From positions 6,550-70,549 of the forward strand of contig JAHFSX010000020.1 in the NCBI GenBank assembly GCA_023269675.1: a stretch of DNA of 64,000 bases, in the 5' to 3' direction. The stretch comes from Verrucomicrobiota bacterium. GTDB lineage: Bacteria > Verrucomicrobiota > Kiritimatiellia > RFP12 > UBA1067. How positions within the stretch are numbered: the first letter of the stretch is position 1; each line of letters begins with the position of its first letter. Made by a program: the position numbers and the translations under genes. Below, piece after piece: positions 1,327-12,342 of the stretch. The notes under the pieces are model-generated. The model had not been told where the DNA came from. It ran no database searches and saw nothing but the letters and a program-made list of their open reading frames with translations.

Positions 1327-2133
1327 TCCTTGTCCTCAAAATGGGGCGAACGTTTTCTGGCTGGCTGAGCCAATTGCTGGCTACTGGATCGACCATGCAT
1401 CGACTTTTTCACATATCGGTTCACAAATCAAGTCGTATATGATGCGCGGCATCATGTCCTGACACAATTCATGCTGTTTCCCTATATCAGGGACCTGCGG
1501 CCTAACATGAGACCGGGACGGCCCCGGCTTCGCGGATACGCTCAGCCGGGGCCGTTTTGCATGCTGCGCATGGTGCGCCCCGCGCGTCCCTTCGGGGATC
1601 GGCACAGGCTTTTCGCATTCCGCTCAAAACCCCCGTCACCAAGGCCGGCACGATACACCGCCGTGTCCGCCTCCTCAGCCGCTCCCGGAACCCGACGCCG
1701 CGCCGGTTGCAGCGGTCACGCCAACGCTTCGGCTACTCGCGCCGGGCGGGTACGCCCTTTGTCATGCCCGTTGCCGACGGCGCGCCTGATCGGCAGGCGT
1801 CCGGTCATCCGTTCCTCCTGCCCGGACGCTTCCCCGTTCCCCAGGGTCCCGTCCGCGCCCTCACCGTCCTGTCTGCAATCTCGTGGCTTACAACGCAACT
1901 GCCCTGTCCTTTAGCCATCATCGCGAATACACAGGCGAGGATGATGGCGAAAGGAAGGGCAGCGTTATGAGTCAGCCACTTTACAGATTGCAGAGCAGGG
2001 CCGGTTTGAGTTCGGCGTCCACCGCGGCGGGTGCCGCGAGTGAGGAATCCGGACTCAGTCAGAGCAGACGTTTTGTCACACCTTCCCTGCCCCCGGCTCC
2101 ATCGTCGCCGCCATCCCCCGCTTTCCCTCTCCC

Positions 2134-2160
2134 ATCATGTGAATCATGTAAATCATGTCA
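2134..2160 (+). repeat. Three perfect tandem 9-mers ATCATGTNA upstream of the first gene of the + operon
   Basis: ATCATGTGA ATCATGTAA ATCATGTCA. The last copy ends 25 nt before the ATG at 2186. Confidence 0.9.
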
Positions 2161-2185
2161 AATAACCCCAGAAAGGACCGCCACC

Positions 2186-2473
2186 ATGAACAGCTACGCC
2201 GAAACCACCCTGCGCGCCCTCGCCGCACAGACCCGCCGCACACCCTACGAGATCCAGACCCTTCTGGCGCTCATCGCCCAGCGCGACGCCGAGACCGTCC
2301 CCGAAGGCCGCAAATACGCCCTCGCCAACGGAGGAGAGCCCGCGACCGAAGCGGAACTGACCTACCTCGCCCGCCTCTGCCGCAACTGCCCGCCCATCCC
2401 CGTTGACCGCCCGCCCGATCCGGCCGACTTCAACGACTGGGAAGCCCGCTGCCCCCACGCCGACCACCTCTGA
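2186..2473 (+). CDS. Hypothetical small protein (95 aa)
   Basis: Internal ATG of ORF 1883..2473, preceded by cAGAAAGGaCCGCCaccATG, the same SD context as downstream genes. Third-position GC becomes very high only from 2186 onward. Confidence 0.65.
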   Translation: MNSYAETTLRALAAQTRRTPYEIQTLLALIAQRDAETVPEGRKYALANGGEPATEAELTYLARLCRNCPPIPVDRPPDPADFNDWEARCPHADHL

Positions 2474-2479
2474 CACCCA

Positions 2480-2520
2480 GCGCCCGCCCGTGGGCCAGGT
2501 ACGCGGGCAGAAAGGCCACC
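2480..2520 (+). repeat. Intercistronic hairpin+SD unit, copy R1
   Basis: GCGCCCGCCCGTGGGCcaggtACGCGGGCAGAAAGGCCACC-ATG. Stem GCCCGC/GCGGGC. Starts 6 nt after the upstream TGA. Confidence 0.85.
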
Positions 2521-2724
2521 ATGAACACCATGCTCACCACCCTCGGAGCGCAAGCCGAATTCACCCAGACATGGAACGCCCTGCAGGCTTGGCTGGAGGA
2601 AGTCAACATGCTCGCCCACCGGCACCACCCGAACCGGACCCAAACGCTGGAAGCCGTCAGCATCTCCAAGCACCTGCTCGACAAGCTGGGCAACCAGATC
2701 GACCAAGCCATCACCGCCGACTGA
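2521..2724 (+). CDS. Hypothetical small protein (67 aa)
   Basis: ORF track. High GC3. Preceded by R1 SD. Confidence 0.7.
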   Translation: MNTMLTTLGAQAEFTQTWNALQAWLEEVNMLAHRHHPNRTQTLEAVSISKHLLDKLGNQIDQAITAD

Positions 2725-2728
2725 TCCC

Positions 2729-2770
2729 GGCGCCCGCCCGTGGGCATCGTTCGCGGGCAGAAAGGCCGCC
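2729..2770 (+). repeat. Intercistronic hairpin+SD unit, copy R2
   Basis: GGCGCCCGCCCGTGGGCatcgtTCGCGGGCAGAAAGGCCGCC-ATG. Confidence 0.85.
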
Positions 2771-3157
2771 ATGAAAAAGAGACAGCACACCGTCACCCTG
2801 CCGCCCGCCGAGCCCGAGATCCCCGCCGTCGAACTCGAATCCGCGACGACCCAGCCCGACCGGCACGAGACCGCCACCCGCGAGGAAGCCATGCTGATCG
2901 CCCTCGACTTCGTGCGCAGCTACGCCAACCACTGGGAACAGCCCGCCGCCGAGATCATCACCACCTTCGCGCAGACGGAAGGCGGATACTGCGGCACCGG
3001 CGTCAGCTACGCCTACAAACGCCGCGGCTTCTTCGTGGGCACCTTCGTCACCCTCAGCAAACCCGAGGAAATCCCCGGCGTGTTTTTCTTCCCGTGGGCC
3101 GAAGTCAAAGCCGCCGCCCTCACCGGAGCCGTCCAAGGCGAATTCAACCTCAGGTGA
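2771..3157 (+). CDS. Hypothetical protein (128 aa)
   Basis: ORF track. High GC3. Its first ~17 codons are duplicated at 4583. Confidence 0.7.
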   Translation: MKKRQHTVTLPPAEPEIPAVELESATTQPDRHETATREEAMLIALDFVRSYANHWEQPAAEIITTFAQTEGGYCGTGVSYAYKRRGFFVGTFVTLSKPEEIPGVFFFPWAEVKAAALTGAVQGEFNLR

Positions 3158-3159
3158 CT

Positions 3160-3191
3160 GAGCGCCCGCCCCCGGGCAGACCGGAGCCGCC
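3160..3191 (+). repeat. Intercistronic hairpin+SD unit, shortened variant R3
   Basis: GAGCGCCCGCCCCCGGGCAGACCGGAGCCGCC-ATG. Stem GCCCG/CGGGC. Confidence 0.7.
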
Positions 3192-3737
3192 ATGAAACAC
3201 ACCAACCAAGAGCAAAAGGCGATCGAAGCCGCACGCGCCGCCGAGGATCTTCCCGACGCCGAATATGACGCGATCCGCAAGACCCCAAGCCAACAGCGCA
3301 CCATCCCCCAGCGCCGCGCCCTGCTGGCAAGCGACCTGAAACGCGCCGGCCAGACGTTCGAGGACCGGGAACGCTCCAACGACCTTTACCGCCACTACCT
3401 GAAGACCGGCGACCGCGCCGAGGCCCGCTGGCATGCCCCTTCCCCGCTCCTGACCTCGACCGCCGCGATCCGCCGCGAACTGGTGGAAGCCTGGAAAGAC
3501 CTGACCCAGTTCGACGCTATGCCCTTCGCCCCCCACGTCAGCCATGAACCCAAACGCTGGCTCAAGTCCGAACGCTTTCACCGCCTCATGGAGATCCAGC
3601 GCGAGATCGAGCGCCAAGGCGGAAAAGTGCGGTATGTCCAACGCACCACCCGACAGGAAGCCATCTACGCCCGCATCATCGCTAGCGACCAACCCAAGAA
3701 CAAACACGAACCCCAGCAGATACCGCTGGGCATCTGA
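3192..3737 (+). CDS. Hypothetical protein (181 aa)
   Basis: ORF track. High GC3. Operon context. Confidence 0.7.
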   Translation: MKHTNQEQKAIEAARAAEDLPDAEYDAIRKTPSQQRTIPQRRALLASDLKRAGQTFEDRERSNDLYRHYLKTGDRAEARWHAPSPLLTSTAAIRRELVEAWKDLTQFDAMPFAPHVSHEPKRWLKSERFHRLMEIQREIERQGGKVRYVQRTTRQEAIYARIIASDQPKNKHEPQQIPLGI

Positions 3738-3749
3738 AAGGAAACGACC

Positions 3750-3944
3750 ATGAACGCGATCATCAGTTATTACTCCTACAGTGAGGAAGGACTGAAAAAC
3801 GGGTCCTTCGCCAGCCGCTCGAAATACGGCCTCGGCCTGTTCACCCTGGGCGACTTCGTGGGCATGATCGAGACCGTGCCCGCAGGCTGGACCCAATACG
3901 ACACGGCCACCGCCCAGAGCCTCATCCCCGATTGCTGCCACTGA
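3750..3944 (+). CDS. Hypothetical small protein (64 aa)
   Basis: ORF track. GAAAGGAAACGACC-ATG SD context 12 nt after the previous stop. Confidence 0.6.
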   Translation: MNAIISYYSYSEEGLKNGSFASRSKYGLGLFTLGDFVGMIETVPAGWTQYDTATAQSLIPDCCH

Positions 3945-3949
3945 AAACC

Positions 3950-3980
3950 GACGCCCGCCCGTGGGCATCGTACGCGGGCC
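3950..3980 (+). repeat. Intercistronic hairpin unit R5 (no intact downstream gene)
   Basis: GACGCCCGCCCGTGGGCatcgtACGCGGGC, then a divergent sequence and a C10 tract. Confidence 0.8.
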
Positions 3981-4010
3981 GTCCCGTTATGTCCGTTCAT
4001 CCCCCCCCCC

Positions 4011-4040
4011 AAAAATCCGGCGCGCCCGCGGGGGCGCGCC
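4011..4040 (-). terminator. Rho-independent terminator of the Cys-rich gene
   Basis: GGCGCGCCC-gcgg-GGGCGCGCC 9-bp GC stem, followed on the minus strand by GGATTTTT. Confidence 0.65.
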
Positions 4041-4095
4041 GATCAACCCCGCCGCTCGTCGCGCTAACGTCTCGCGCCGGGTCCCGGCAAACGAT

Positions 4096-4332
4096 TCAAA
4101 GCCCGTGTTTTTTGTAAAGCTCAAGCCGCGTGGGGCACTTGCAGTAACGGGCGCCTCCGAAGGACTCCCTGTAAGGACACCGCGAGCCGGCCGGGCATTT
4201 GATGAAAAGGAGCTCCTTTCCGACATAATAATCGACCGTGCAGATGCATTTCCCGTCGCCCTTAAGGCACGCGAAATCCTTGTCACATCGCGTCGTCGCC
4301 CGCAAAGCCTGTTCGCTCACCTCGATGGCCAT
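4096..4332 (-). CDS. Small cysteine-rich protein (78 aa, 8 Cys), probably metal-binding
   Basis: MAIEVSEQALRATTRCDKDFACLKGDGKCICTVDYYVGKELLFIKCPAGSRCPYRESFGGARYCKCPTRLELYKKHGL. Has an SD-like GGGGGTG, plus its own promoter and terminator. Confidence 0.7.
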   Translation of the reverse strand: MAIEVSEQALRATTRCDKDFACLKGDGKCICTVDYYVGKELLFIKCPAGSRCPYRESFGGARYCKCPTRLELYKKHGL

Positions 4333-4434
4333 AAATCACCCCCGTCAATCACGAGTACAACAACATGTCTGGGCATTGATGTATCTGCAAACCAGAGGCT
4401 CAAAAAACCTGATTTAACCATATGTTTGGCATGT

Positions 4435-4462
4435 ATTATGCGGGGGGGGGTAAAATTGTCAA
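4435..4462 (-). promoter_or_regulatory. Sigma-70-like promoter TTGACA-N16-CATAAT with a C9 tract in the spacer
   Basis: Minus strand reads TTGACA(4462-4457)-attttaCCCCCCCCCg-CATAAT(4440-4435), about 100 nt upstream of the ATG at 4332. Confidence 0.6.
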
Positions 4463-4538
4463 CGGCTTATTTTATACGCCAAGTGCCTGATCGACAAGAA
4501 AGGCGAGTCGCGCGACAACGCCGCGCGGCAGCAAAGCC

Positions 4539-4582
4539 CCGCGCCCGACCGTGGGCCGGGTACGCGGGCAGATCGGACCGCC
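4539..4582 (+). repeat. Intercistronic hairpin+SD unit, copy R6
   Basis: CCGCGCCCGACCGTGGGCcgggtACGCGGGCAGATCGGACCGCC-ATG. Confidence 0.8.
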
Positions 4583-4738
4583 ATGAAAAAGAGACAGCAC
4601 ACCGTCACCCTGCCGGCAGTCGAGCCCGAGCCCGCCCTTTCTTTTCGCCCCCCAAAACGGTGCGCCTGCAGGGGTTCGCCATACTCGTTTGGATGGCTTA
4701 TAAACAGGTTATGCGCACACACACCAGAAGTAAACTAG
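4583..4738 (+). pseudogene. Truncated duplicate of the 5' end of gene 2771..3157
   Basis: ATGAAAAAGAGACAGCACACCGTCACCCTGCCG is identical to 2771-2803 (MKKRQHTVTLP). It diverges after ~17 codons and stops after 51 codons. Confidence 0.6.
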
Positions 4739-4814
4739 TTCTTGCCGGAAGACTGACCTCGAGTAAGTTTGTCTTCAACACCGGTATCTCTTAGGTTATG
4801 TTAAGTAATAGAAA

Positions 4815-5231
4815 TCAAGAAAAGGTGAACAATGCGTTCGAACTGCTTCCACAGATTTTCAACTCCAAGTTTTTAAGAAAATTCATTCCCAAGATCATAG
4901 AGTTGTTTGCCATTTTTACATTAGCAGGAGGGCCAAACTGCACACTTCCATTAACCCAATATATCTTTTTATGGCCAACGAACCTGCTGACAGCAAAAAG
5001 CACATCAATGCTATTCGACCCATTATTAGGCGATGGTAAACCGACCACGCCAGCCCATTGTGTCTGAATATGGTTATACGGAGTACAAGAAAAAAAAACC
5101 GTTTCTTGAAAGTAACTAACGGCAACAGGTTTTGACGTGTTATATGTGCTTGGAAGACAGGCGATACTCAATCGTATAGGAGCAATAGTATATTCGCTAG
5201 TCCTTAAATTCACACTCAACTTTTTAAACAT
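4815..5231 (-). CDS. Hypothetical protein (138 aa), second gene of low-GC cassette; possible degenerate retropepsin-like fold
   Basis: Start chosen at MFKKLSV because of GGAGAGAACG-ATG. The C-terminal motif ILGMNFL resembles the (I/L)LG(M/R)(D/N)(F/L)L motif of clan AA aspartic peptidases. No D(T/S)G triplet is seen. Confidence 0.55.
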   Translation of the reverse strand: MFKKLSVNLRTSEYTIAPIRLSIACLPSTYNTSKPVAVSYFQETVFFSCTPYNHIQTQWAGVVGLPSPNNGSNSIDVLFAVSRFVGHKKIYWVNGSVQFGPPANVKMANNSMILGMNFLKNLELKICGSSSNALFTFS

Positions 5232-5275
5232 CGTTCTCTCCGATTCCCGCCACGCCAACACCCCAGAATAATACC

Positions 5276-6232
5276 TTAAAGACCAGCATTCGTTACGTAA
5301 CAATCTTTGGTTGGTTTCAATTCTGTTCTGTCCAACTTAATAAATAATTGGCTCCAATCGGGCGCAGATTCTATGATACCCGCTTCCGTTACTGCTACGA
5401 CACTACCCTGATATTTTTTACATATGTCTTTCGTCCGATTACGTTGCCACCATAAAGCACCCATATCCGCAGGAGAGTGTTGGTCAAAAAAGACTCCATT
5501 AAATGATGAGTCAGTTCTCCATTCATCAAAGTCACTCAGGGAAGTCGCTATGTGACCGTCTGCCATTTGTTTAATCTGTGATGCGTAAAAAAGCGCTATC
5601 GATTTTCGCGAGGAAACAAAAACGCGACGTCTGATAGCTTGTTGTTCTTGGTGGTCTTCTTCGAAAGACAACTCGGCCGTCATTTTCTCGTCTTTAGTAA
5701 AGATTACCGATACAAAGTGTAAGGGCTCTCGGTCGCCGATGTTGATAACAACGCCTTTATCTGGGTGAGATAGCAATTTTTCTGCAAACGGATTGCCAGC
5801 AGCATCTTTCATGATCCTGGTCGAAGATGTAACAAGAAATCTGAATGAAGGTTCACTCAGACGTTCTTCGATCAGTTGAAGCGCCCTCTTTGTAAGAAAA
5901 ACGTCCTTGTGGAATGAGCCCACGTTTAAGAACAGAAAACTGTTTGGCTTGGAAAGACAATTTTCAACGTAGGCGGTTCTCTCTTCAGGGCCTTCCAGTT
6001 CAATCCTCAACTCATTTCCTTCAGCGAGTTCATTCGATCGAAGCTTGGACTCAATCTTATCCCAGTCGCTATCTGTTTTTGGAGAAAGATTGATTTTCCG
6101 ACGTTCAAAAAAGACGCTATATTTTTGTGCCGATGGCTCGGTAACCCTTTTTGACGAACTTCGCTGAAGCACGCGCACAAAGCCTTCTAGCTTCTGGCGA
6201 TAACAATCGATCTCCATCATGCGTAACTCCAT
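5276..6232 (-). CDS. Hypothetical protein (318 aa), first gene of low-GC cassette
   Basis: ORF track. Strong SD GAGGAGGGAGTC-ATG. I recognise no family. Confidence 0.7.
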   Translation of the reverse strand: MELRMMEIDCYRQKLEGFVRVLQRSSSKRVTEPSAQKYSVFFERRKINLSPKTDSDWDKIESKLRSNELAEGNELRIELEGPEERTAYVENCLSKPNSFLFLNVGSFHKDVFLTKRALQLIEERLSEPSFRFLVTSSTRIMKDAAGNPFAEKLLSHPDKGVVINIGDREPLHFVSVIFTKDEKMTAELSFEEDHQEQQAIRRRVFVSSRKSIALFYASQIKQMADGHIATSLSDFDEWRTDSSFNGVFFDQHSPADMGALWWQRNRTKDICKKYQGSVVAVTEAGIIESAPDWSQLFIKLDRTELKPTKDCYVTNAGL

Positions 6233-6310
6233 GACTCCCTCCTCTCGAATTCCAGTCGCAACTATCCTAGCTGTCCTGCCGAAGAGGCAACGTCATCTTC
6301 ATGCGGGGAT

Positions 6311-6340
6311 AGAATATCCCCCCCCGTGCTTCGAATGCAA
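6311..6340 (-). promoter_or_regulatory. Sigma-70-like promoter TTGCAT-N18-TATTCT with a G8 tract in the spacer
   Basis: Minus strand reads TTTTTTTTg-TTGCAT(6340-6335)-tcgaagcacGGGGGGGGa-TATTCT(6316-6311), about 80 nt upstream of the ATG at 6232. Confidence 0.55.
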
Positions 6341-6780
6341 CAAAAAAAACCAGCTTCATAATGTTGCCCATAGATGGAAACGTGCTTATGAAGAAGTGTG
6401 TGCCGGAAATAGTGGCATTGTTGTGTAAGTCTTGTGTGGTGAGTGTTGCGGATCAACAATTGTACTGTTTAAGGCATAACAGTAGTCATAATCTCTCTCA
6501 ACATGCCGTCCCTTTCCAGACATCCTCCGCCTTATCGGCAGGCGTTATTGAGAATCTCCGATTGACAACAGAACCGTAGCAAACTTTACTCCCCTGCTTC
6601 AAGCGTATATTTTGGTGTTTTTTCCCCAGGGATTGATACCGAATTGAATAGGTGAAGTTCCTATAGGTCGGAGGGGTGGCATACAAATCTGTTGATCTGA
6701 GTAGAGGGTGATTAGGGGGACGTATCACGGAAAAACGGACAAACAGGTTAGCTAATCCGTCCTCTCCCCCCCCCATACCG

Positions 6781-6814
6781 CACTAACGCAATAACGCACT
6801 AACGAACTTCTTCC
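6781..6814 (-). repeat. AT-rich octamer array at gene 3' end (island copy 1)
   Basis: + strand CACTAACG CAATAACG CACTAACG AACTTCTTCC. Encodes the tail KKFVSALLR* of the ASCH gene. Confidence 0.85.
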
Positions 6815-7247
6815 TCACTTCCCCGTCCACCGCCCACACGCCGAGAAATCCCTTGGCCGCGACGCCCCGCGCGCACAACACCGGCCGTTCCAGCTCCCAC
6901 GCCACATCGCCCATGTACCACGGGTCGGCCGACGCGGTCAGCGCCGAAACCACATGGATACCGCACACCACCTGCCCGCACCAGGCGCGGCACTCGTCAT
7001 ACCCCGGAAAGCGCACCGCCGCGCCGAACCGGTCCGCCACCCACAGGCTGCCCGCGCACCAGTCAGAAAAGCTGAGGTTGTTGGAAGCGTGCACGAGGTA
7101 GAGGCCGGGCGGCACGCGGAAACTCCGGTTCTCCACCGTCTTCAGCCCCGCCCGGATCAGCAGGCCCCAATGCGCCTTCACCGTGAACGCCCGTAGTCCT
7201 TTCCGCTCGAAGTTCGGCGTCCGGCGTTGAATGTCCGACGTTCGCAT
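6783..7247 (-). CDS. ASCH-domain protein (154 aa)
   Basis: LRAFTVKAHWGLLIRAGLKTVENRSFRVPPGLYLVHAS matches the ASCH pattern (xxSIRQPWAxLIxxGxKxIENRSW...IHAS). Start set at MRTSD with GGAGGGAGAGCAA-ATG. Confidence 0.75.
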   Translation of the reverse strand: MRTSDIQRRTPNFERKGLRAFTVKAHWGLLIRAGLKTVENRSFRVPPGLYLVHASNNLSFSDWCAGSLWVADRFGAAVRFPGYDECRAWCGQVVCGIHVVSALTASADPWYMGDVAWELERPVLCARGVAAKGFLGVWAVDGEVRKKFVSALLR

Positions 7248-7497
7248 TTGCTCTCCCTCCGTCCCCAGCCGTTTGAATGTTGCCGATTGCCGATTGCTGA
7301 TTGCTGTCCTCCGTCCTCTGTCCTCCGTCTTCACTCCCCATCCCGTCCGACTGATCGACGCCGCGCCAGTCCTTTTCCCAACAAACGCACGCCGCATCAC
7401 TCGCCTCTATCAACCTTTCGCCGCGCGGCAGGCACATCCCCGCCGGCCACATCGCCCCGCACGAGCAGAACGACCCGCACTCGCGGCAAAGTTTCAT
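7063..7497 (-). CDS. Possible small Cys-rich ORF (MKLCRECGSFCSCG...); extent uncertain
   Basis: ATG lies 13 nt after the stop of 7511..7864. The N-terminal 45 aa look protein-like. The ORF then crosses heptamer repeats and overlaps the ASCH gene out of frame by 185 nt. Confidence 0.25.
   Translation of the reverse strand: MKLCRECGSFCSCGAMWPAGMCLPRGERLIEASDAACVCWEKDWRGVDQSDGMGSEDGGQRTEDSNQQSAIGNIQTAGDGGRANANVGHSTPDAELRAERTTGVHGEGALGPADPGGAEDGGEPEFPRAARPLPRARFQQPQLF
7282..7333. repeat. Two adjacent tandem heptamer arrays
   Basis: GCCGATT GCCGATT GCTGATT, then GCTGTCCTCC GTCCTCT GTCCTCC GTCTTCA. The minus strand reads GGAGGAC-like SD repeats. Confidence 0.8.
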
Positions 7498-8301: not shown

Positions 8302-8346
8302 ATTCGCCGTCCTCCGGCCTCAGTCTTCTGACCTCATCCCTCTCCC

Positions 8347-8386
8347 CACTAATGCACTAATGAACTGACGAACTAATGAACTTCTC
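8347..8386 (-). repeat. AT-rich octamer array at gene 3' end (island copy 2)
   Basis: CACTAATG CACTAATG AACTGACG AACTAATG AACTTCTC. The stop of 8373..8600 lies inside it. Confidence 0.9.
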
Positions 8387-8600
8387 TCGCCTTCCCCTGC
8401 AGATCCACCGCAAACCGGCCCTTGGCCAGCGTCAGAAAAACGTCCGGCTCGCAGTTGCAGACCTGACCGGAATTCACGGCGCACCAGAAATCATGCTGCA
8501 CATGACAGTCGCTTTTCCGGTCGAGGCAAGAAACGTCGAACACCTGCCGAAAACCGAGGACCATCCGTTCCTGATACGATAACCGCGTTTTAACAGACAT
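8373..8600 (-). CDS. Hypothetical small protein (75 aa)
   Basis: ORF track. GAAAGGAGTACGGCG-ATG. Ends ...EVH*. Confidence 0.6.
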   Translation of the reverse strand: MSVKTRLSYQERMVLGFRQVFDVSCLDRKSDCHVQHDFWCAVNSGQVCNCEPDVFLTLAKGRFAVDLQGKAREVH

Positions 8601-8643
8601 CGCCGTACTCCTTTCGCTGTCTTCCGTCCTCCGTCCCTAATCC

Positions 8644-8683
8644 CACTAATGCACTAATGAACTAACGGACTAAGGAACTTCCC
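8644..8683 (-). repeat. AT-rich octamer array at gene 3' end (island copy 3)
   Basis: CACTAATG CACTAATG AACTAACG GACTAAGG AACTTCCC. Confidence 0.9.
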
Positions 8684-8804
8684 ACTTCTCTTTCTCCGGA
8701 TCGTCCGCCTCGACTCCGGTCTCGCCTCTGAACGCCCACCATGTCCGTCCCGCCGCTACGGCGATCAAGCACACGAGCCACACGAAATCGGCAACAGTTC
8801 TCAC
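8670..8804 (-). CDS. Possible 44-aa single-TM peptide (GTG start)
   Basis: Own translation: VRTVADFVWLVCLIAVAAGRTWWAFRGETGVEADDPEKEKWEVP*, with AAGGAG 11 nt upstream. Preferred over the Arg-rich track ORF 8662..8856. Confidence 0.35.
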   Translation of the reverse strand: MRTVADFVWLVCLIAVAAGRTWWAFRGETGVEADDPEKEKWEVP

Positions 8805-8853
8805 GGGCGTTCAATCTCCTTCGCGTCTTAGCGCCTTCGCGATAGACACCTCC

Positions 8854-8893
8854 CACTAATGCACCAATGAACTAACGAACTAATGAACTTCTC
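8854..8893 (-). repeat. AT-rich octamer array at gene 3' end (island copy 4)
   Basis: CACTAATG CACCAATG AACTAACG AACTAATG AACTTCTC. Confidence 0.9.
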
Positions 8894-9227
8894 CCCCCCG
8901 TTTCAAATAACACATGTGCCAGATCGGATGATAATTACCGGCCGCCTCGTCGCCGTCCAGCAGCACCACCAGCCGCCCGGAACGGCCGCCCGTGATCACG
9001 CCCGGCCGGCCGTCGAACTCGACCCGCCGCCCGACCGTCGCCGGCACGCCGTAGGCGTTCCGGATATATTCGAGACCCTGCGCGGCGACCTGCGCGCGTT
9101 CACACGTTTTGCAGGTCACCTCCATATCCGAGCCGGGGACAACCACCTGGACGCCGGCCCGCGCGCGTCCGCAGAGCGTCATGCCCGCAGGGCCCGCGGC
9201 ATGGTTCACAAAACGGTAACCGCTCAT
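8880..9227 (-). CDS. Hypothetical protein (115 aa)
   Basis: Internal start MSGYRF, chosen for GGAGGTAATT-ATG. Ends ...GGEVH* inside the octamer array. Confidence 0.6.
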   Translation of the reverse strand: MSGYRFVNHAAGPAGMTLCGRARAGVQVVVPGSDMEVTCKTCERAQVAAQGLEYIRNAYGVPATVGRRVEFDGRPGVITGGRSGRLVVLLDGDEAAGNYHPIWHMCYLKRGGEVH

Positions 9228-9361
9228 AATTACCTCCTGCAGATCGGGTAAACCGCCGCGCAGGGCCGGATCGGACCTGTGAGACCGGTCCCCGCGCGGC
9301 TTTCCGGAACATCCGGAAATCAACTGCCGTCCAAGGCGTTCACCACTCTCCCGCATTGCCG

Positions 9362-9393
9362 CACTAATGAACTATGACACTAACGCCCTTCTC
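9362..9393 (-). repeat. AT-rich octamer array at gene 3' end (island copy 5, degenerate)
   Basis: CACTAATG AACTATGA CACTAACG CCCTTCTC. Confidence 0.75.
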
Positions 9394-9658
9394 CCCCGTC
9401 TCCGGCGCTCGGGACAGCCGGACCGCGCGGCAGCGGCAACGAGGAGGGGAGGGGAGCCGGCGCCTCATTCTCCAGCCATTGCCTGACATCCGCGGTGCAG
9501 AACACGACCACGGACGACCGGCTTTCCGGCACCGGCTTGCGCGCCCGGATGGCCCCGGCCCGCGCCAGTTCCAGCAGCCGGTTGCGCGGCAGCCCGTACA
9601 GCGCCGTCACGCACTCCGCCGTCCCCCACAGCGGCTCCATCTGTATCACGACGGTCAT
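9380..9658 (-). CDS. Excisionase/AlpA-like helix-turn-helix DNA-binding protein
   Basis: PLWGTAECVTALYGLPRNRLLELARAGAIRARK...VRQWLE fits the HTH_17/Xis pattern. Its start overlaps the upstream RHH stop (ATGA). Confidence 0.6.
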   Translation of the reverse strand: MTVVIQMEPLWGTAECVTALYGLPRNRLLELARAGAIRARKPVPESRSSVVVFCTADVRQWLENEAPAPLPSSLPLPRGPAVPSAGDGGEGR

Positions 9659-10195: not shown

Positions 10196-10539
10196 TGCCT
10201 TTCAGCGCAATGTTTACACGGAACGACACTAAGTTGCTTCCGCGCGAGATCGCGGAAACAGCGTGCTGTTCCGTCCGCCAAGGAGCGGTCCGAGCGATCC
10301 CTTGTGGCTATGCGAGGCACGTTTCCCAAAACGGTCCGGGTAAAACGCCGGTCACCGGGCCCCGGCCAGGCCTCCCCGGCCGAAGTTATTTGTCGCGGGT
10401 TTTTTACCCGCGCTACCCCTCAAAACGGTATGGCAAAGGTATGACAAACAGGCTTCAAATATATCAAATCGGTACTGAAAAACGTCACTTTTTGACGCTT
10501 TTTCATCAAAAAAACCTCATTTTTGGTCAAAAACGCGCC

Positions 10540-10572
10540 TTGTCGCGGGTTCGAATCCCGTCCTCCCCGCCA
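10540..10572 (+). other. Orphan tRNA/tmRNA 3'-end fragment (T-arm, acceptor 3' strand, CCA); putative attR
   Basis: GCGGG-TTCGAAT-CCCGT-CCTCCCC-G-CCA. The same architecture as a tmRNA/tRNA 3' end. No complementary GGGGAGG 5' acceptor strand or other tRNA arms upstream. Confidence 0.7.
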
Positions 10573-10586
10573 TTCTTTTTTTAGAA

Positions 10587-10638: not shown

Positions 10639-10668
10639 TTGACCGGCGTCGCGGGTTGCGGGTATACT
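10639..10668 (+). promoter_or_regulatory. Sigma-70-like promoter TTGACC-N18-TATACT (uppP)
   Basis: TTGACCGGCG...GTATACTG, 15 nt upstream of the ATG at 10683. Confidence 0.5.
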
Positions 10669-11519: not shown

Positions 11520-11549
11520 TTGACCGGCGGGGGTGGAAAGCTCTATACT
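11520..11549 (+). promoter_or_regulatory. Sigma-70-like promoter TTGACC-N18-TATACT (rpoZ-smpB)
   Basis: TTGACCGGCG...CTATACTG. Same hexamers as the uppP promoter. Confidence 0.5.
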
Positions 11550-11859: not shown

Positions 11860-12342
11860 ATGAGCGAGGAGAGCAAAAAACGCAACGGCGGCAATCTGAC
11901 GGTCAACCGCAGGGCGCTGCACGATTATTTTGTTCTCGAGAAGTACGAGGCCGGCATCGAGCTGGTGGGTACCGAGGTGAAGGTGGTGCGTAACGGCGAG
12001 GCCGGGTTGACCGGCTCCTACGCCCAGGTGAAGAACGGACAGCTCTACCTGAATCAGGTGATGATCCCGCCTTACGCCTTCGGCAACCGCTTCAACCATG
12101 ACTCGCTGCGGACGCGGCGCCTGCTGATGCACACGCGGGAGATCCGCAAGCTGCAGGCGCAGTCGGAGCAGAAGGGGCTGTCGCTGATACCGTTGAGGAT
12201 GTACCTGACTCCAAAAGGTCTGGTCAAAGTGGAGATCGGGGTCTGCCGGGGCAAAGCCCAGGAAGACAAACGCGAGACCATCAAGCGGAGGGACGCGGAC
12301 CTTGAGGCCCGCCGGGCGATTGTGACACACTATAAAGGGTGA
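11860..12342 (+). CDS. smpB: SsrA-binding protein
   Basis: NRRALHDYFVLEKYEAGIELVGTEVKVVR...RTRRLLMHTREIRKL...GLSLIPLRMYL is canonical SmpB. Confidence 0.93.
   Translation: MSEESKKRNGGNLTVNRRALHDYFVLEKYEAGIELVGTEVKVVRNGEAGLTGSYAQVKNGQLYLNQVMIPPYAFGNRFNHDSLRTRRLLMHTREIRKLQAQSEQKGLSLIPLRMYLTPKGLVKVEIGVCRGKAQEDKRETIKRRDADLEARRAIVTHYKG

Follow-up and report, generated by a model that had tools for sequence, protein, structure and literature searches.

The window analysed here is a 64,000-nt stretch of contig JAHFSX010000020.1, and its host is an uncultured Kiritimatiellia bacterium from gut or wastewater. The window carries a phage-like integrative element, and in the cargo region of this element (4001-6774) lies a low-GC cassette of two minus-strand genes, at about 4700-6760. 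The first gene of the pair encodes a protein of 318 amino acids (aa; 5276-6232) with a predicted PLD/Nuc-type fold, and the second, 44 nt downstream, a protein of 138 aa (4815-5231). The cassette has a GC content of 43%; around a neighbouring 78-aa gene the GC content is 58%. Upstream of the 318-aa gene, a homopolymer of eight G residues (G8) is placed between two hexamers resembling the -35 and -10 boxes of sigma-70 promoters, and a first-pass annotation of this DNA had proposed it as a phase-variable switch. The reading put forward here, as quite possible rather than probable, is that G8, prone to slippage and located in the spacer of a weak sigma-70-type promoter, modulates transcription of the cassette through a spacing of 17, 18 or 19 nt. 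This reading is plausible and partly supported because of a cluster of similar tracts and a stronger neighbouring site, more than because of the quality of this promoter.

Strand reading and a homopolymer scan gave the minus strand at the site as T8-g-TTGCAT-tcgaagcac-G8-a-TATTCT, an exact match to the string and coordinates of the first-pass annotation. The T8 run (6349-6342), also described earlier, lies directly upstream of the -35-like hexamer TTGCAT (6340-6335), with a single g (6341) between them. This hexamer agrees with TTGACA at three of six positions and keeps the TTG. It is followed by nine nucleotides, tcgaagcac (6334-6326), and by the candidate slippage tract G8 (6325-6318; C8 on the plus strand), which ends one nucleotide (a, 6317) before the -10-like hexamer TATTCT (6316-6311), the latter having four of six matches to TATAAT with T-12, A-11 and T-7 kept. 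By these coordinates the spacer is 18 nt, eight positions of which are homopolymer, as had been claimed. The -10-like box ends 78 nt from the ATG at 6232, close to the roughly 80 nt given before, and the Shine-Dalgarno region GAGGAGGGAGTC (6245-6233) immediately precedes this ATG. T8 may act as an UP-like A/T tract, or else form the U-tail of an upstream hairpin, CTTCATAA...TTATGAAG (6393-6354), which is weak (z = -1.2). Homopolymers of about 7-8 nt or more are long enough to slip, and G8 is among them; its 8 nt reach the length range of known slippage tracts.

Only four G/C runs of at least 8 nt exist in the whole window, and all of them are intergenic and fall within the 2.8 kb of 4001-6774. 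On the minus strand these are G10 (4001-4010) at the left edge of the cargo region, C9 (4442-4450) in the spacer of a neighbouring promoter, G8 itself, and G9 (6766-6774) at the right edge of the low-GC cargo. For 3990-6790, dinucleotide shuffling gave a mean of 0.063 such runs against the four observed (maximum 2 in 300 shuffles), and the G8 tract is far beyond chance. The remaining 57 kb (6791-64000, 66% GC) contains none, against 3.75 expected by shuffles. The long tracts are thus enriched over both background and composition, as in a contingency-locus cluster, and the contrast of 4 versus 0.06 with 0 versus 3.75 indicates that the host avoids long G/C runs and the cargo region accumulates them. 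In 259 kb of related Kiritimatiellia metagenome-assembled genomes (MAGs) there are 10 G/C runs of at least 8 nt, about one per 26 kb. Promoter frames enclose two of the four tracts, G8 and C9, and each of these frames points at the gene downstream.

In two of these related MAGs an orthologous C-rich tract (L005, 8729-8739; L012, 6355-6375) lies upstream of a promoter-like TTGGCT-16-TATCTT and a lipoprotein gene. It reads CCCCCT-C11 in the first and C9-T-C4-T-C5-T in the second, differing by substitutions at equal total length with no indels. Other members of the clade therefore also have long C-rich tracts beside promoters.

The tract lengths were reproduced in a second assembly. A Logan contig of run SRR14366756 (2224 bp) is 100% identical to window positions 6809-4586, including G9, T8, G8 and the T9 run described below, and since this independent assembly gives the same lengths, G8 is not one assembler's idiosyncrasy. 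A sequencing or assembly artefact, such as two-colour Illumina poly-G or a chimeric homopolymer join, is barely credible as an explanation of the runs. The contig is metagenome-assembled and both assemblies probably share the same reads, which leaves it some room, but two different assemblers arrived at the same sequence, and every run is internal, measures no more than 8-10 nt and has unique sequence on either side. The ends of the Logan contig lie in island repeats, none of them at a homopolymer, and the runs are not all of one base on a given strand, three being poly-G where the fourth is poly-C.

A parallel to G8 is the neighbouring C9 site, by score a much stronger promoter. Promoter frames were scored with a crude sigma-70 weight matrix. 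On this scale the minus-strand frame TTGACA-atttta-C9-g-CATAAT (4462-4435), with a 16-nt spacer, is near-consensus; it reaches 13.5 bits (chance P about 0.0005), was called by a consensus scan, and points to a Cys-rich 78-aa open reading frame (ORF; 4096-4332), the protein product of which yielded no homologues. At both C9 and G8 a single base separates the tract from the -10 box. The first-pass annotation had seen the same architecture recurring at 4435-4462, and in this it was right, the frame being real and the placement of the tract identical; the recurrence does not extend to the other two of the four tracts, which have no promoter frame. On the plus strand the same C9/G9 tract is enclosed by a second frame, TTGGCA-19-TAAAAT (4426-4456; 11.3 bits), which points to a 51-aa ORF at 4583-4738. 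One additional base in the tract would give spacers of 17 and 20 nt, and one base fewer spacers of 15 and 18 nt. By analogy with hifA/hifB, a single tract could therefore toggle between two divergent promoters.

The 51-aa ORF belongs to a set of repeats in this part of the element. A GC-rich hairpin element, GCGCCCGCCCGTGGGC..GTACGCGGGCAG, occurs in four copies (2476-2525, 2726-2775, 3947-3996 and 4537-4586), with further similarity between 2766-2818 and 4578-4630. Three of the four copies stand directly before an ATG, and the ORFs at 2771 and 4583 both start with ATGAAAAAGAGACAGCACACCGTCACC (MKKRQHTVTLP...). The similarity of the latter ORF is lost after 4630, and at only 51 aa it may be the remnant of a paralogue of a 128-aa gene, left beside the inserted low-GC cassette.

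In the mechanism proposed for G8, slipped-strand mispairing at replication would add or remove a G, which would change the length of the spacer (17, 18 or 19 nt) and the angular phasing between TTGCAT and TATTCT. Transcription of the cassette would then be switched or graded in a subpopulation, heritably yet reversibly. The scheme supposes that this frame is an active promoter and that the tract varies in length, and also that the cassette has a costly function, possibly anti-phage or that of a toxic nuclease-like protein, which would gain from stochastic silencing.

A number of observations weigh against this reading, and first among them is the promoter frame. TTGCAT-18-TATTCT has 7 of 12 consensus matches and was not called by the consensus scan (threshold at least 9 of 12). 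At 7.75 bits it is only the sixth best frame in 6233-6800, and frames of at least 7 bits occur about once per kb per strand. When G8 was simulated in sequence of local composition, a frame this good enclosed the tract on the gene strand with P about 0.04, and on its own the G8 promoter frame is not beyond chance. It does keep the positions of greatest importance (TTG; TA...T). On the plus strand the tract is enclosed by a frame of 0.9 bits, so the promoter frame is confined to one strand. Of the promoter call made in the first-pass annotation, the intergenic tract on the gene strand and its enclosure by a frame stand; the hexamers proved weak, and five other frames of the leader score higher.

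Two identical frames elsewhere in the window, TTGACC-18-TATACT (14.2 bits), were found at 10639-10668 before uppP and at 11520-11549 before rpoZ, and suggest that sigma-70-like promoters are in use in this organism, for which an 18-nt spacer is possibly the usual length. The spacer of the G8 frame has the length of these two strong host-type promoters. To our knowledge, the promoter rules of Kiritimatiellota have no experimental characterisation, which adds to the doubt about G8.

The higher-scoring frames of the 550-nt leader (8.1-8.9 bits), which likewise tell against G8, include TTGCCT-18-GATAGT at 6290-6261, downstream of the tract. They raise the alternative that the tract is hypermutable and regulatory and the real promoter lies elsewhere, at 6290-6261 or at the frames at 6602, 6489 or 6456. 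Tract length would then alter the distance or phasing between the promoter and an upstream element (T8, or an activator or repressor site at a palindrome over the -10-like box), or a hairpin of the 5' untranslated region (5'-UTR) in which the G run pairs with CCCC. A precedent for a repeat tract placed upstream of the promoter is the TAAA tract of Neisseria nadA, and the enrichment argument for hypermutable tracts is independent of mechanism; the palindrome also involves the tract. This alternative is nevertheless unlikely, since none of the other frames is strong, the leader and 5'-UTR fold no better than shuffled sequence, and the parallel geometry with the strong C9 promoter favours a role in the spacer. 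Rfam found no structured RNA here, either at gathering score or at E up to 1. A 34-aa upstream ORF (6371-6267) spanning T8 and G8 was considered as a leader peptide and discarded, as it has no Shine-Dalgarno sequence and none of the three frames ends coupled to the start of the 318-aa gene.

The palindrome itself is a further point against a switch at G8, because it places the tract and the -10-like box within a structure that has a possible explanation of its own. The last four G's of G8, the following a and the -10-like box take part in a perfect palindrome, GGGGATA-TTC-TATCCCC (6305-6321), which occurs nowhere else in the window. In simulations, such a hairpin beside a G run had P about 2e-4, and as RNA this one folds with -12.4 kcal/mol (z = -2.3). 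Its role could be that of a repressor operator across the -10 box, compatible with a promoter, or the hairpin could be unrelated, in which case the likeness of TATTCT to a -10 box would be no more than its by-product. Likewise unfavourable are the tracts at 4001-4010 and 6766-6774, which have no promoter frame on either strand; since half of the tracts lack one, location in a promoter spacer is not what the members of the cluster have in common.

These facts bear on the explanation that there is no switch at all. The tract would then reflect neutral or weakly constrained slippage or expansion in recently acquired AT-rich non-coding DNA, or growth of a G4 arm belonging to an operator palindrome or a hairpin, and the -35 and -10 hexamers would be coincidental. 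A marginal frame, a strongly non-random palindrome that uses only four of the eight G's, and two tracts standing outside promoters all fit it. So does an excess of every kind of homopolymer: counting all bases, 4700-6780 holds four runs of at least 8 nt against 0.38 expected, the cassette having T8 and T9 besides its G runs. Expansion in situ is also consistent with the alignment of G9 (6766-6774) with GGGGAGAG/GGGATTAG (GGGG/GGG) in four paralogous post-gene elements, which suggests that short G runs were expanded in place. Against this, 2.8 kb hold four intergenic G/C runs, two of which are enclosed by promoter frames, where 57 kb otherwise have none. A mutational bias of a single donor fails to account for them, since they lie in segments of differing composition (58% versus 43% GC), and long G/C runs, being unstable, tend to disappear if nothing maintains them. 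The absence of any switch is regarded as doubtful, with a weight that must be taken seriously.

The case for slippage at G8 is also weakened by the scarcity of comparators. The only other sequence of the site is the second assembly, with an identical G8 length. No siblings of the cassette were found in GTDB genomes, JGI metagenomes, IMG/VR or a collection of 15 billion proteins, and a literature search returned no paper linking Kiritimatiellota with phase variation. A pattern of the exact flanks with a variable gap matched no GTDB genome, and a shorter version matched nothing in IMG/VR. The one JGI metagenome match to this shorter pattern was rejected as a chance match, as its gap consists of 13 nt of non-G sequence and it shows no homology to the window. 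The 318-aa, 181-aa and 128-aa proteins, used as guides, retrieved no relatives in genome or metagenome contigs.

The proteins of the cassette are orphans at the sequence level. Neither the 318-aa nor the 138-aa protein matched Pfam, PADLOC-DB v2 (0 families) or PHROG, no sequence-profile match was obtained in PDB, and tblastn of the cassette against phages and plasmids found nothing. Among 1.8 billion representative proteins the 318-aa protein has about ten relatives, a tiny orphan family. An AlphaFold2 model built on the alignment of this family (pLDDT 81) has a single domain of the PLD-superfamily fold, Nuc/BfiI/NucT-like, at residues about 75-230, together with an extra N-terminal helical region and a small C-terminal domain. 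Foldseek matched the model almost exclusively to PLD-superfamily structures, with probability 0.95-1.0; the top nine PDB matches include FAM83, F13, PssA, PLD, Nuc and PPK1, and weaker E-values were obtained for PLD3 (rank 13) and BfiI (rank 27). The TM-score normalised to Nuc is 0.61, and the top viral structure matches are a NucT-like nuclease and a PLD-domain protein.

The model thus displays the PLD-type alpha/beta sandwich, and its central domain shares the predicted fold of the single-domain PLD nucleases (Nuc 1byr, BfiI 2c1l and phage NucT-like enzymes). The catalytic motif HxK(x)4D(x)6G(S/T)xN, in contrast, is absent. Invariant positions in the family alignment are N103, G105, H172-F173, H194 and E196; after H172-F173 comes I or V, so that position +2 holds no lysine. 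Whereas PLD nucleases carry HxK(x)4D, the 318-aa protein has H then F-[IV], lacks any match to them at the sequence level, and differs also in its N-terminal helical region and C-terminal domain. Taken together with the genomic context, the modelled fold would be compatible with a nuclease-like toxin or defence function of the cassette.

A small gene (159 aa) likewise comes after the closest full-length relative of the 318-aa protein (P0015, 39% identity), and a phage-type integrase is situated about 1.3 kb from this relative, so that the two-gene layout may recur on another mobile element. The locus of another homologue (P0002) was set aside as a comparison: it has 29% GC, a different operon and no G/C tracts, and its 138-aa neighbour is unrelated to the 138-aa protein of this cassette. 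For the latter, no homologue was found in any collection searched, and its structure model is uninformative (pLDDT 33). Its coding sequence contains a T9 run in frame (5090-5098; A9 on the plus strand), and the ORF has its full length only with T9; T8 or T11 would give 104-105 aa, and T7 or T10 would give 51-52 aa. T9 is therefore a potential second slippage site of the cassette, acting at the translational level.

The cassette is cargo DNA acquired horizontally. From position 1 to about 10580 the window has a lower, patchy GC content, and synteny with Kiritimatiellia MAGs starts only at rpoZ, around 11503; SmpB (11860-12342) is 93-94% identical to SmpB of such MAGs. The element region comprises a plus-strand module (1883-3944) and, on the minus strand, small genes arranged as an operon (9846-6783), among which are PHROG matches and a weak excisionase-like HTH; the 4001-6774 stretch lies between these two convergent modules. 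Sibling islands, found via the cluster of the 128-aa protein (ENA ERZ27297709 contigs), share the 67/128/181/64-aa module and carry different cargo after the 64-aa gene. One sibling has a TPR protein, an SNF2 helicase, a DUF6119 protein, an N6/N4 methyltransferase and ResIII, and another has response regulators. Because the sibling islands keep the module and vary what follows it, 4001-6774 is identified as the variable cargo hotspot of a phage-like integrative element; the defence-like cargo of the siblings marks the position as a cargo and defence hotspot.

Just after the upstream operon and G9, a hairpin followed by U5 (6764-6731, minus strand; -13.8 kcal/mol, z = -3.2) may terminate this operon and isolate the cassette, although a consensus terminator scan did not call it. 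Such termination suggests that the cassette needs its own promoter. At the other end of the cargo, the terminator hairpin and U5 of the 78-aa gene (4016-4041; -24.3 kcal/mol, z = -3.5) precede G10, which is located in the convergent gap between the plus-strand module and the cargo, at the conserved/variable boundary inferred from the sibling islands.

The placement of these outer runs brings up a different explanation, that the G/C runs are junctions or recombination sites of cargo insertion, either targets or scars, rather than expression switches. By sibling gene order, paralogue alignment and GC profile, G10 and G9 sit exactly at the two edges of the cargo region, and both are poly-G on the same strand. 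G8 and C9, however, lie inside compositionally homogeneous AT-rich DNA with no breaks in composition, no recombinase, inverted repeats or target-site duplications are associated with the runs, and we know of no element that targets poly-G. This explanation is considered highly improbable.

Some other particular features of the island were recorded. Five genes of the minus-strand operon end within copies of a conserved element, GAAGTTCATTAGTTCGTTAGTTCATTAGTGCATTAGTGGGA, which spans about 40 nt, repeats every 8 nt and is followed by a purine-rich stretch resembling GGGGAGAGG (copies at 6780-6824, 8346-8390, 8643-8687, 8853-8897 and 9361-9397). The 8-nt period puts TAG in all three reading frames, and possible roles of the element are an all-frame stop, an array for the binding of a regulator and the boundary of a cassette; its pattern is absent from IMG/VR and GTDB genomes. 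A 7-nt tandem repeat, AGCAATC AGCAATC GGCAATC GGCAAC, is found at about 7279-7305 on the minus strand, upstream of the ATG at 7247 of a 154-aa gene that matches PHROG_3193. At the right edge of the island, a fragment resembling the 3' end of a tRNA, TTGTCGCGGGTTCGAATCCCGTCCTCCCCGCCA, occurs at 10540-10583, and a 12-nt direct repeat, TTGTCGCGGGTT, at 10390-10401, 150 nt upstream of it. These two are probably the remnant of an att site, and the intact tRNA and the integrase presumably lie beyond the left end of the window. A complete tmRNA or tRNA gene at 10200-10583 was dismissed, as ARAGORN and Rfam find none and only the tRNA-like fragment is present.

A broader proposal is that the cargo hotspot is a set of contingency loci, each cassette standing under its own hypermutable G/C tract (G8 for the two-gene cassette, C9/G9 shared by divergent promoters), with the in-frame T9 added in the partner gene. 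This broader proposal is unlikely. If true, it would give the PVC/Kiritimatiellota lineage its first described case of slipped-strand phase variation, and the variation would control an orphan two-gene module with an HKD-less PLD fold, maybe a new defence or toxin system. Textbook examples of homopolymer promoter switches come from a few host-adapted pathogens; uncultured environmental or gut lineages and the cargo of mobile elements have scarcely been searched for them. Should the tracts vary, stochastic silencing of costly acquired genes by slippage would operate in Kiritimatiellota too, mobile elements could carry cargo pre-fitted with switches, and the PLD-fold module would be flagged as worth silencing and as a candidate new defence or toxin system. 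Should they not vary, the site would be an ordinary weak promoter look-alike beside an unusual and unexplained homopolymer cluster.

Among known systems, the geometry of G8 is closest to that of Neisseria meningitidis porA (poly-G) and opc/fetA (poly-C), where a tract of about 8-14 nt lies between -35 and -10 and a one-base slip alters the spacer and expression. G8 resembles these tracts as a G/C homopolymer in the promoter spacer of an accessory gene of variable benefit. The Neisseria tracts have mapped starts, length polymorphism and expression phenotypes and control surface proteins, whereas G8 is a candidate predicted from sequence, has weak hexamers and precedes an orphan PLD-fold cassette on a mobile element. 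The hosts differ as well, that of G8 being an uncultured bacterium of the PVC group.

In fim2, fim3 and fimX of Bordetella pertussis, which depend on BvgA, a C-stretch of about 13-15 nt lies between the -10 box and an upstream recognition element. Several paralogous promoters there each have their own tract, and the window likewise has two tract-containing promoters. Bordetella differs in the activator BvgA and the longer tract; the window offers no evident activator or paralogous gene family. The overlapping divergent promoters of Haemophilus influenzae hifA/hifB, with TA repeats, are established experimentally and resemble the neighbouring C9/G9 site (4426-4462) more than G8, as frames on both strands share one tract and a change in length would affect both directions. 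The hif repeat is a dinucleotide and its frames are experimental, and G8 has a frame on one strand only.

For function, the nearest comparison is phase-variable defence, represented by the G-tract of pglX in the Pgl/BREX system of Streptomyces coelicolor and by the mod genes of type I and III restriction-modification systems. In these, a costly anti-phage or nuclease-type function on accessory DNA is under a homopolymer switch, as proposed for the cassette. Their tracts lie in coding sequence and act by frameshift, while the cassette matches no known defence family and a defence role for it would rest on the modelled fold and context. A homopolymer in a promoter spacer is the classical slipped-strand contingency mechanism, and from its sequence and position G8 is a plausible candidate for a new member of this class of promoter switches.

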